Shown piece by piece: positions 37,473 through 38,052 of a stretch of 64,000 nt of DNA (its first letter is position 1; each line of letters starts with the position of its first letter). Location: assembly GCA_019752815.1 (NCBI GenBank), contig JAIELQ010000005.1, positions 140,816-204,815 on the forward strand, given 5' to 3'. The notes below the pieces were generated by a model, which was given only the letters and a program-made list of their open reading frames with translations, searched no databases and was not told the origin of the DNA. The DNA is from Patescibacteria group bacterium. Lineage in GTDB: Bacteria; Patescibacteriota; Minisyncoccia; Phycocordibacterales; UBA918. The translations under genes and the position numbers were made by a program.

Positions 37473-37559
37473 CCAAATATACCATAAATTAAGCCCTAAA
37501 AACTATATTTTTAGCCACATTATGTTGACAACATCTAATTCCCCAATTCTAATGCTTGA

Positions 37560-38010
37560 CTTTTGTACGTAAGTATGCTACTGTAGTAAATGTCTGAGGC
37601 ACGGTGCCAAAAGATAAAAAGGGAGTTATCTGATGAAGATCAATTTTTCGCCCCAGGGTCATGAGCCCATGAAAAGCAATGTTGAACCTGACATCCTGGG
37701 CGCCGACACCGGCCACAACCCGTCGACCTGATCGGTCTTCGGCCGGCGGACCATGGCGGTCGGCGGAGCGAATTCCTTTTAGGGACTGGCTGCCGCGATA
37801 ACTGCATGGCCTGAACGACCCCGGAGTGACTCCTGCCGATGCACGTGATGTGCTAGGTGCAGGATGTTCACTCCGGGGAACTTGAAACCTCGGCGAAAAA
37901 ATTGGAGACGTCGATGTTCTTGAACGAGCGATGTAGAGGCTAACACCTCGTGCGGTTGCTGAAGACCGAAAGAAAAAAATCAGTAAGGTTAGAATCACCT
38001 GAGCCTAAAA
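37560..38010 (+). ncRNA. GC-rich non-coding island inserted between scpB and scpA; candidate structured RNA of unidentified family. Strand is tentative.
   Basis: About 450 nt, visibly GC-richer than its surroundings, with no credible ORF (the minus-strand 149-aa ORF is a low-complexity R/S/P artefact). Contains hairpins such as GGCAC-G-GTGCC and CCCAGG...CCTGGG. Ends at a strong plus-strand terminator. Confidence 0.3.
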
Positions 38011-38011
38011 G

Positions 38012-38052
38012 TATTTAGCCCCGCGTACTTGTCTATGACAGTCGCGGGGTTC
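38012..38052 (+). terminator. Rho-independent terminator on the plus strand closing the GC-rich island
   Basis: CCCCGCG-TACTTGTCTATGACAGT-CGCGGGG followed by TTCCTTTATTTT. Confidence 0.6.

Follow-up and report, generated by a model that had tools for sequence, protein, structure and literature searches.

Dual-function small RNAs (sRNAs) are the described systems that come closest to the locus presented here. SR1/SR1P of Bacillus subtilis, RNAIII/delta-haemolysin of Staphylococcus aureus, and SgrS/SgrT and AzuCR of Escherichia coli have their own promoter and intrinsic terminator, give rise to transcripts of a few hundred nucleotides, and join an open reading frame (ORF) of fewer than 50 codons, led by a Shine-Dalgarno (SD) sequence and held under purifying selection, to RNA structure located outside the ORF. 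Here we describe an element that appears to have the same organization in a 64,000-nt stretch of DNA from a Patescibacteria group bacterium (contig JAIELQ010000005.1; the whole stretch is referred to as the window), where it occupies the gap between scpA and scpB. The likeness to dual-function sRNAs is one of organization, as these are described in the literature. To our knowledge, uncultivated Patescibacteria, which have tiny genomes, offer almost no characterized small RNAs or small proteins, and our search of the literature found no description of such an element.

We propose, with a probability of about 0.62, that the island in this gap is a lineage-specific small-peptide gene with a functional structured 3' region, that is, a candidate dual-function RNA. 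The support comes from comparison among related copies and comprises the conservation of promoter and terminator, the coding signature of the first ORF (ORF1), the structure and strand of an RNA module (M1), and a restricted distribution. In the window, scpB (36936-37472, minus strand, Pfam PF04079) and scpA (38126-38869, minus strand, Pfam PF02616), which are normally co-transcribed, are separated by 653 nt. An earlier inspection of the letters alone (the sequence-only reading) had noted this split as one of about 650 bp and had taken the interval for a non-coding stretch and a candidate structured RNA oriented opposite to both genes. The observation was largely real and the interpretation half right: a plus-strand unit with its own terminator and a conserved RNA structure is indeed found against the two minus-strand genes, but the label "non-coding" does not stand, as a protein-coding frame with homologs, which the sequence-only reading had itself named as a refutation, covers 99 of the approximately 470 nt predicted to be transcribed.

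The copies compared were gathered by a genome-collection scan with ScpB, which yielded 80 loci, both scp genes being found in 70. The two genes are adjacent (at most 130 nt between tblastn ends) in 43 of these 70 loci, and more than 250 nt apart in 22; the junction is uninterrupted in more distant relatives, as the sequence-only reading had suggested checking. Among those loci, gap DNA homologous to that of the window occurs only in L001-L004 (ScpB 81-85% identical) and L009 (about 61%). Retrieval of further close ScpB homologues and their contigs brought the set to 16 distinct element copies (window, L001-L004, L009, L201, L205, L206 with two, L207, L209, L210, L218, L219 and L232). Groundwater, activated carbon and glacier-fed streams are among the sample types from which L201-L213 originate. 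The element is confined to close relatives, with ScpB about 60-91% identical, and is missing from L214 (ScpB 76%, genes 82 nt apart) and from L215-217, whose junction holds an unrelated 137-aa gene. On these comparisons, the element is a derived feature of a narrow clade.

Both ends of the unit are conserved. All copies carry on the plus strand a -35 hexamer TTGAC(T/A) and a 17-nt spacer ending in TGn, and over the 16 copies the -10 hexamer drifts only within TAnnnT (TACTGT, TATTGT, TATAAT, TACTAT, TAACAT, TATCAT, TAAAGT), so that this promoter (P2) is the best-conserved segment of the element, with a mean pairwise identity of 0.73. Its motif, AATGCTTGAC-N11-AGTATGYTA, has one site in the window and one in each of five relatives, and transcription is predicted to start from it at about 37590-37592. 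A plus-strand hairpin followed by a T-run closes every copy; its outer stem is altered on both sides in L003 (UCCCGC/GCGGGA), and its inner stems differ between variants yet are self-complementary. These stems were compared through per-sequence folds and visible compensatory changes, MAFFT having misaligned the terminators, and a simple terminator scanner missed the hairpin of the window copy because of its loop limit of 8 nt. The sequence-only reading had recognized this terminator (CCCCGCG...CGCGGGG with a U-rich tail) by eye, and its folding energy agrees with that assignment. The predicted transcript would thus run for about 470 nt, from about 37590 to 38060, divergent from scpB and convergent with scpA, and the conserved extended -10 promoter and the terminator suggest the independent transcription unit that is expected of a dual-function sRNA.

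Where the sequence-only reading had seen no plausible ORF, all 16 distinct copies have an SD-led ORF of 24-55 codons at the same position and distance from the promoter. Over 10 copies, the number of distinct bases at successive positions of its NFSP codons is 1,1,2,1,1,2,1,1,4,1,1,4, that is, only third positions change; if random, 4 variable sites out of 12 would all be third positions with a chance of 1 in 495. The median ratio of nonsynonymous to synonymous changes (dN/dS) among six well-aligned long copies is about 0.5 in frame, versus 1.0 and 1.25 in the other frames. The folds of the copies gave no consistent pairing partner for the Ser-Pro codons, therefore RNA structure does not account for the NFSP motif; pairing of these codons with the GAG codons, considered as an RNA-level cause of the motif, was dropped for this inconsistency. 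Together, the codon signature, the dN/dS values and the conserved SD and ATG point to a translated small ORF of the kind found in dual-function sRNAs. On the minus strand, an ORF of 149 aa that had already been set aside as an artifact has no Pfam match, and the variable sites of NFSP fall on its first codon positions, from which we infer that it is an artifact. Gene callers predicted homologues of the ORF1 peptide (P0121-P0124). The 504-nt contig that carries P0124 is a genomic fragment, which rules out its being a transcript assembly.

At the RNA level, M1 was found in eight copies of both element types by profile search, and in L209 by covariance model. RNAalifold gave it 24 pairs, 5 compensatory; in the eight-sequence alignment its helices are 94% and 89% paired, versus 34-47% with the partners slid, and its whole-structure covariation score was reached by 1 of 500 shuffles. 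Compensatory changes among relatives, which the sequence-only reading had advised looking for, are therefore present in this hairpin module. Several M1 pairs are G-U in most copies and fit the plus strand only. In the same direction, the plus-strand scores of the copies against the covariance model are 72-99 bits, the reverse strand reaching 17.5 at best, and in 517 kb of DNA from relatives the model matched the element alone. Nucleotide identity is 0.66 in M1 versus 0.45 in ORF1. A conserved and covarying M1 located outside the ORF would be an indirect pointer to a regulatory activity of the RNA. The features of the window copy are listed in Table 1.

Table 1. Features of the scpA-scpB junction element in window coordinates (element coordinate 1 is window position 37551; dG, folding free energy; z, score against shuffled sequences).
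Feature	Position	Strand	Description
Perfect 11-nt palindrome TGTTGACAACA	37523-37533		scpB-proximal edge; holds a -35-like hexamer, TTGACA (+) / TTGTCA (-)
Possible upstream promoter P1	37525-37553	+	TTGACA, 17 nt, TCTAAT; read from sequence
Main promoter P2	37556-37584	+	-35 TTGACT 37556-37561; 17-nt spacer ending TGC; -10 TACTGT 37579-37584
5'-terminal stem-loop	37591-37616	+	UGUCU..GGCA-CGG-UGCC..AGAUA; per-sequence folds
Shine-Dalgarno AAGGGAG	37619-37625	+	7 nt 5' of ATG; SD-like sequence in every copy
ORF1 MKINFSPQGHEPMKSNVEPDILGADTGHNPST	37633-37731	+	32 codons plus TGA (37729-37731); SD-led
Small UUCG hairpin	37733-37745	+	CGGUC-UUC-GGCCG, directly 3' of the ORF1 stop; fold
RNA module M1	37748-37811	+	64-nt irregular hairpin: outer helix GACCAUGG/CAUGGCC, inner helices, apical UCC-loop-GGA
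Long GC-rich hairpin M2	37820-37877	+	CCCCGGAGUGA...UCACUCCGGG; 58 nt, GC peak of the island; dG -36 kcal/mol, z -5.0
Mini-ORF MFLNERCRG	37914-37943	+	9 codons, SD-led; at the position of MK(I/V)(F/L)RL in larger relatives
3' block	37953-38018	+	small hairpin, A-rich linker (GAAAGAAAAAAAUCAG), hairpin AGGU-UAGAAUC-ACCU 37986-38006, linker
Intrinsic terminator	38019-38061	+	31-nt hairpin 38019-38049 plus UUCCUUUAUUUU; dG -19.1 kcal/mol, z -4.3

The 5' stem-loop and the UUCG hairpin were, like the terminator, drawn from per-sequence folds and visible compensatory changes. The stem-loop is present in nearly all copies, with outer stems that vary and are complementary (UACCU/AGGUA, UACCC/GGGUA, UACCUGAG/CUCAGGUG, UGCUUGAG/CUCAAGU). 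RNAalifold returned no consensus for the 5' leaders, owing to 3' strands that are out of register in the alignment. Most copies have leader folds with a mostly unpaired SD; for the window copy, the thermodynamic ensemble of the full-length transcript pairs it in part with the tail of the terminator (probability of being unpaired 0.23), a pairing that, judged by eye, is not conserved among copies. Relatives have, at the place of the UUCG hairpin, a hairpin built from other stems (GCCCG-UUU-CGGGC, GGCCA-CUU-UGGCC, CGGCC-UUUU-GGCC). In a single hand-drawn register this hairpin could not be followed across the copies, because of alignment offsets. Over about 110 nt, the 3' block is 84-85% identical to L002 and L210 and 76% identical to L004, and its AGGU-loop-ACCU hairpin occurs at the same place in long-type copies. 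CCUGA is found 27 times against 8 expected, an excess that we discarded as a signal, as it is due largely to CCUGA forming one half of the 5' and 3' hairpin stems and to the relatedness of the copies. Mimicry of the 16S rRNA 3' end by GGUUAGAAUCACCUGAG was dropped as well, that block forming its own hairpin. Whether the 9-codon mini-ORF has any significance in the window copy is doubtful.

Near the boundaries of the unit, the TAAT of the P1 -10 hexamer is kept in relatives, and the evidence for this promoter is weaker than that for P2. The palindrome TGTTGACAACA is invariant in all copies and occurs also in the element-less relatives L214 and L215; it is thus probably a component of the region upstream of scpB and not of the element. 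Between the element terminator and the scpA stop codon lies an AT-rich hairpin (38071-38088, CTTTCTGTTAACAGAAAG), which is probably part of the termination region of scpA itself, so that scpA and the element appear to end back to back. A promoter similar to P2 (TTGACA, 17-nt spacer ending in TGC, TATAGT) is located at 24577-24606, upstream of an ordinary coding region, which points to TGn-extended -10 promoters being widespread in this genome.

Hydrophobic stretches are absent from the ORF1 peptide, which is hydrophilic. Its conserved parts are NFSP, a GAG/D-L segment and a GH at the C-terminus, and the rest, including a variable middle, evolves fast. No match was obtained in scans of Pfam, NCBIfam, PADLOC and PHROGs, and an exhaustive profile search of 1.84 billion proteins retrieved only the peptide's own family, P0132, and spurious "NFSPDG" matches to WD40 proteins. 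The latter lie in several short stretches and correspond to a strand motif, "VNFSPDGK", found in large WD40 proteins; we regard them as a motif coincidence. P0132 (120 aa, L001 locus) is the L001 ORF1 extended past its TGA across the RNA module and the terminator, evidently an annotation artifact of a gene call made with a genetic code in which TGA is sense. A precursor of a ribosomally synthesized and post-translationally modified peptide was rejected, given that no maturation enzymes are encoded nearby, both ends are conserved with a variable middle, and no Pfam or NCBIfam precursor family matches; a lasso-peptide or lanthipeptide precursor, suggested by the resemblance of GAGH and DLxVS, was dropped for the lack of maturation genes.

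ORF1 differs from its surroundings in codon usage. The GC content at its third codon positions (GC3) is 0.70, versus 0.36-0.47 in neighboring host genes, and TGA is the stop in all 15 copies examined, whereas this codon, the rarest stop in the window, ends only 4 of its 54 long ORFs. (T/C)CGG and a hairpin usually come after this TGA. Beyond it no conserved or open frame exists in any of the three frames across copies, which led us to reject selenocysteine recoding (UGA plus a selenocysteine insertion sequence), readthrough and frameshifting at this codon. An overlapping constraint at the RNA level, or a role for slow termination at UGA, is a possible cause of the universal TGA.

With respect to composition, the 300-nt stretch of highest GC content in the 64 kb falls within the scpA-scpB gap (0.587, against a mean of 0.433 and a standard deviation of 0.048; the whole window has 43.3% GC). 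The sequence-only reading had described a GC-rich stretch of about 450 nt; its position at the GC peak was correct, but only about 260 nt are truly GC-rich (37640-37900, 59%), with a core at 37690-37880 (64%) and 52% over 37549-38052. As coding stretches elsewhere in the window reach 57% GC, the composition of the island is not exceptional by itself. High GC is nevertheless kept in copies from hosts at about 60-72% ScpB identity (L009, L218, L219), and this persistence in diverged hosts argues for selection rather than recent import. Several stable internal hairpins were found, as had been expected from the letters, and the gap region folds better than shuffled sequences with z = -4.8 on the plus strand and -4.4 on the minus strand; since both strands outfold their shuffles, folding energy alone cannot tell the strand.

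The copies fall into two paralogous types. A short ORF1 characterizes those of the window, L002, L004, L209, L210 and the second L206 copy, and a long ORF1 those of L001, L003, L201, L205, L207, L232 and the first L206 copy. L206 (JAHZTJ010026919.1) carries a tandem pair, a long copy at element coordinates 1-520 and a short one at 521-1000, both with a promoter and a terminator of their own; the patchy distribution of the types probably goes back to such an ancestral arrangement. Type does not track ScpA/ScpB similarity, as the nearest relatives of the window, L201-L204, carry the long type; from the sequences, differential loss from a tandem pair would explain this distribution without horizontal transfer. 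Larger short-type copies have about 250 nt extra and two further SD-led micro-ORFs. One, ...KIRIR(D/S)PT... (L002, L004, L209, L210 and L218; at element coordinates of about 300-450), shows essentially third-position-only variation; its K-I-R-I-R segment resembles the +x+ motif of drug-dependent (macrolide) ribosome arrest. The other, MK(I/V/M)(F/L)(R/L)... (L002, L004, L009 and L219; at about 395-525), follows CAGGGAGAG, and its SD can form a 4-bp hairpin. The window copy lacks the KIRIRxPT micro-ORF and has only the 9-codon ORF in place of the second.

The genes that neighbor the element are pepA, scpA, scpB, a D-Ala-D-Ala carboxypeptidase gene, mraY and ftsW. Other big scpA-scpB gaps contain unrelated small genes opposite in strand to scpA and scpB, or a transposase-like gene. 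Such junction cargo occurs in L010, L012, L022, L080, L215, L218, L009 and L058 as unrelated small genes of 106-164 aa, among them a family of 137-141 aa in the L215 and L218 junctions, and as a 226-aa transposase-like gene in L058. In L009 and L218 a cargo gene adjoins the element, after its terminator and with its own promoter. The variety of this cargo identifies the scpA-scpB junction as a hot spot for accessory genes. Stand-alone GIY-YIG ORFs (80-96 aa, PF01541) lie between pepA and scpA in L207, L210 and L219, and not in the window.

Searches for known RNA classes agreed with the sequence-only reading, which could not match the island to RNase P RNA, transfer-messenger RNA (tmRNA) or signal recognition particle (SRP) RNA. 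With Rfam 15, which also covers 6S RNA, OLE, HEARO, raiA and riboswitches, the window at gathering thresholds gave only tRNA-Ser (16567-16653), and a scan of 37400-38200 at E-values up to 10 gave only sub-threshold noise of 19 bits or less. As the window copy is among the shorter versions, the loci of 11 relatives were also scanned, with no matches, and the larger L004 copy had none at E-values up to 1. ARAGORN found no tmRNA in the window, and neither an Rfam tmRNA model match nor a tRNA-like domain was seen. The proposed Rfam scan thus assigned the region to nothing, but close relatives do conserve it. No part of the element recurs within the 64-kb window; BLAST against phages and plasmids found nothing, and two element-specific patterns gave only chance matches in viral contigs. 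Likewise, among the matches listed from a metagenome scan with the promoter pattern (at least 120 loci), none had scpA, scpB or homology to the element, and we consider them chance matches.

Taken as a small-peptide gene with a functional 3' region, the element could work as follows. The strong extended -10 promoter would start a transcript of about 470 nt near 37590, whose 5' end would form a stem-loop of the kind that stabilizes bacterial mRNAs. The exposed SD would drive translation of a hydrophilic peptide of 32 residues, probably unstructured, with its N-terminal NFSP and C-terminal GH apparently under purifying selection and a fast-evolving remainder. The GC-rich 3' two-thirds would fold into the UUCG hairpin, M1, M2 and the 3' hairpin, and the intrinsic terminator would face the end of scpA. 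We take the peptide as a probable real product and the 3' region as a putative functional RNA that would at least stabilize or process the message; this region may also be a riboregulatory or protein-binding domain, which would make the transcript a dual-function RNA.

Several observations count against this proposal. One copy pair has a dN/dS of 1.9, the differences by codon position are nearly flat over all copies (1744/1727/1920), and the peptide is poorly conserved outside its motifs; the L219 ORF has only 24 codons, its C-terminal motif being in another frame. Only four called members of the peptide family exist in 5.8 billion proteins, and AlphaFold2 run on the peptide alignment predicted neither a fold nor secondary structure (predicted local distance difference test 62, predicted template modeling score 0.21). 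The covariation support concerns M1, through 8-9 related sequences; homologues of M2 are found only in L004 and in the second L206 copy and are nearly identical. Transcription, translation and the 5' end are all predictions, and so is every statement on function; the "dual-function" part is conjecture.

Each of the other explanations accounts less well for the combination of codon signature, plus-strand signals and M1 data, and all were ranked below this one. That the product is purely the folded GC-rich RNA, with a short ORF that is incidental or only loads ribosomes, would suit the better conservation of M1, with covariation, relative to ORF1, the GC-rich composition kept across diverged hosts, an ORF of 24-55 codons most of whose sequence is free to vary, the apparent frameshift in L219 and a peptide with no predicted fold. 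We still judge it unlikely, given variation restricted to third positions in NFSP and essentially so in the KIRIRxPT of larger relatives, a dN/dS lower in frame than off frame, an SD and ATG in every copy, a motif that RNA pairing does not explain, and no Rfam match even at E-values up to 10. Less likely again is a translation-sensing cis-regulatory RNA of the leader-peptide or attenuator kind, in which the progress of ribosomes on ORF1 would control downstream folding and termination, and through them either the antisense or convergent transcription that enters scpA or the transcript's own stability. Regulatory leader peptides typically conserve a short nascent-peptide motif while the remainder varies, which is what ORF1 displays; UGA ends 15 of 15 ORF1 copies against 4 of 54 host ORFs, with a hairpin directly after the stop; the larger relatives add micro-ORFs, one with its SD inside a small hairpin; and the unit converges on scpA through a terminator region common to both. 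However, the window has no downstream gene in the same orientation, in L009 and L218 the gene that follows is served by a promoter of its own located beyond the terminator, no anti-terminator pairing was identified, about 290 nt separate the ORF1 stop from the terminator, and the SD is exposed, not regulated, in the leader folds. The attenuator class proper was rejected because the terminator is followed by the convergent 3' end of scpA and no alternative pairing was identified. Below this in our ranking we place a bolder speculation, in which Patescibacteria would possess a translation-coupled riboregulator of a new class. It would be a modular RNA, rich in GC and highly expressed, with conserved micro-ORFs (NFSP..., KIRIRxPT, MKxFRL) acting as sensors of the nascent chain or of ribosome occupancy, with UGA and the hairpin making termination dependent on release factor 2 the sensed step, and with M1 as an effector that binds a protein or an RNA.

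Quite improbable in our estimation is a functionless remnant of horizontally acquired or mobile DNA, such as a decaying gene or a palindrome of the repetitive extragenic palindromic (REP) kind, left in a hot spot. The GC content, the GC3 of 0.70 and the TGA stop do resemble a high-GC donor, the junctions of relatives contain unrelated cargo that includes the transposase-like gene of L058, the short and long types depart from the ScpB tree, with two copies in L206, and the window itself encodes an IS200-like Y1 transposase flanked by palindromes. Yet these palindromes are unrelated in sequence, and the element is single-copy in the window and has no phage, plasmid or viral-contig match beyond chance; promoter, SD, ORF motif, M1 and terminator are constrained down to about 60% ScpB identity; and differential loss from a tandem pair, as in L206, explains the patchy types. 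A REP element or bacterial interspersed mosaic element was rejected on similar grounds, there being no second copy in 64 kb and the covariance model matching the junction only. We consider least probable of all a feature of the minus strand, namely a structured intercistronic spacer of a scpA-scpB co-transcript. The normal co-transcription of the two genes and the good folding of the minus strand (z = -4.4) would fit it, but the plus strand is the one on which promoter, SD-led ORF and terminator are read, many G-U pairs of M1 become A-C on the other strand, the model scores are 81-99 bits forward versus at most 17.5 in reverse, and the hairpins after scpA look like terminators.

Elsewhere in the window, two perfect 27-nt palindromes (52523-52549 and 53187-53213) that differ only in their central base, AATCTTAGGGGTT(A/T)AACCCCTAAGATT, flank a plus-strand gene (52565-53188, 207 aa) located among minus-strand genes and encoding an IS200-like Y1 transposase (PF01797, E-value 3e-7); the segment 52523-53213 resembles a tyrosine transposase of the REP-associated kind, accompanied by its cognate palindromes. 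A further palindrome, AAAAAACTCCC(TTCG/GAAG)GGAGTTTTTT, recurs at 25275-25304, 58204-58230 and 58877-58906 with A and T runs on both sides, and these sites look like bidirectional terminators reused at gene ends. At 43837-47354, two tandem paralogous genes of 558 and 553 aa on the minus strand share 125 nt at 74% identity (43847-43971 and 45700-45824).

For the element, the outcome is a well-delimited candidate, consisting of a promoter, a leader, a 32-codon ORF, an RNA module and a terminator, and represented by 16 copies of two paralogous types. In this clade, the normally coupled scpA-scpB pair is split, with a junction that has become a hot spot where small accessory genes settle. Annotators may take from this case the warning that translated micro-ORFs can be concealed in GC-rich islands labeled "non-coding". 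Its narrow distribution limits the wider impact, its value being mainly that of a testable small-RNA or small-protein candidate in uncultivated Patescibacteria.

Compared with known systems, the element shares with RNase P RNA, tmRNA, SRP RNA, 6S RNA, OLE, GOLLD, HEARO, ROOL and raiA the form of a GC-rich structured island in a genome of lower GC content, with its own promoter and terminator, but differs from these housekeeping and ornate RNAs in having no covariance-model match (window and 11 relatives), a predicted translated ORF and a very narrow distribution. The type I toxin mRNAs hok, fst and tisB are also structured messages of about 400 nt that encode peptides of fewer than 55 residues, and the window copy may even pair its 5' and 3' ends; unlike them, its peptide is hydrophilic without a membrane segment, no antisense gene is evident and the end pairing is not conserved, and a type I toxin-antitoxin assignment was rejected for this hydrophilic peptide, for the absence of a visible antisense unit and for the lack of a PADLOC match. 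With the leader and arrest peptides ermCL, ermDL, SecM and TnaC the element has in common a short ORF with a small conserved motif and adjoining RNA structure, whereas it lacks a regulated downstream gene and alternative pairing, and its motif is at residues 4-7 rather than near a stall site. In contrast to the dual-function sRNAs SR1/SR1P, RNAIII, SgrS/SgrT and AzuCR, with which only the organization is comparable, since there is no sequence or structure homology (no Rfam match), the element has no identified base-pairing target or seed, belongs to one Patescibacteria clade, and carries in its larger relatives two further conserved micro-ORFs. Finally, a 5' hairpin, an exposed SD, a short hydrophilic peptide, and 3' hairpins with a terminator are what an ordinary small-protein gene would have; what sets the element apart is that M1 is more conserved than the coding part and common to two types with very different ORF bodies, which is more than simple stabilizer hairpins would need. 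The family is new and narrow, while its general kind, a small-peptide gene or dual-function RNA, is already known.

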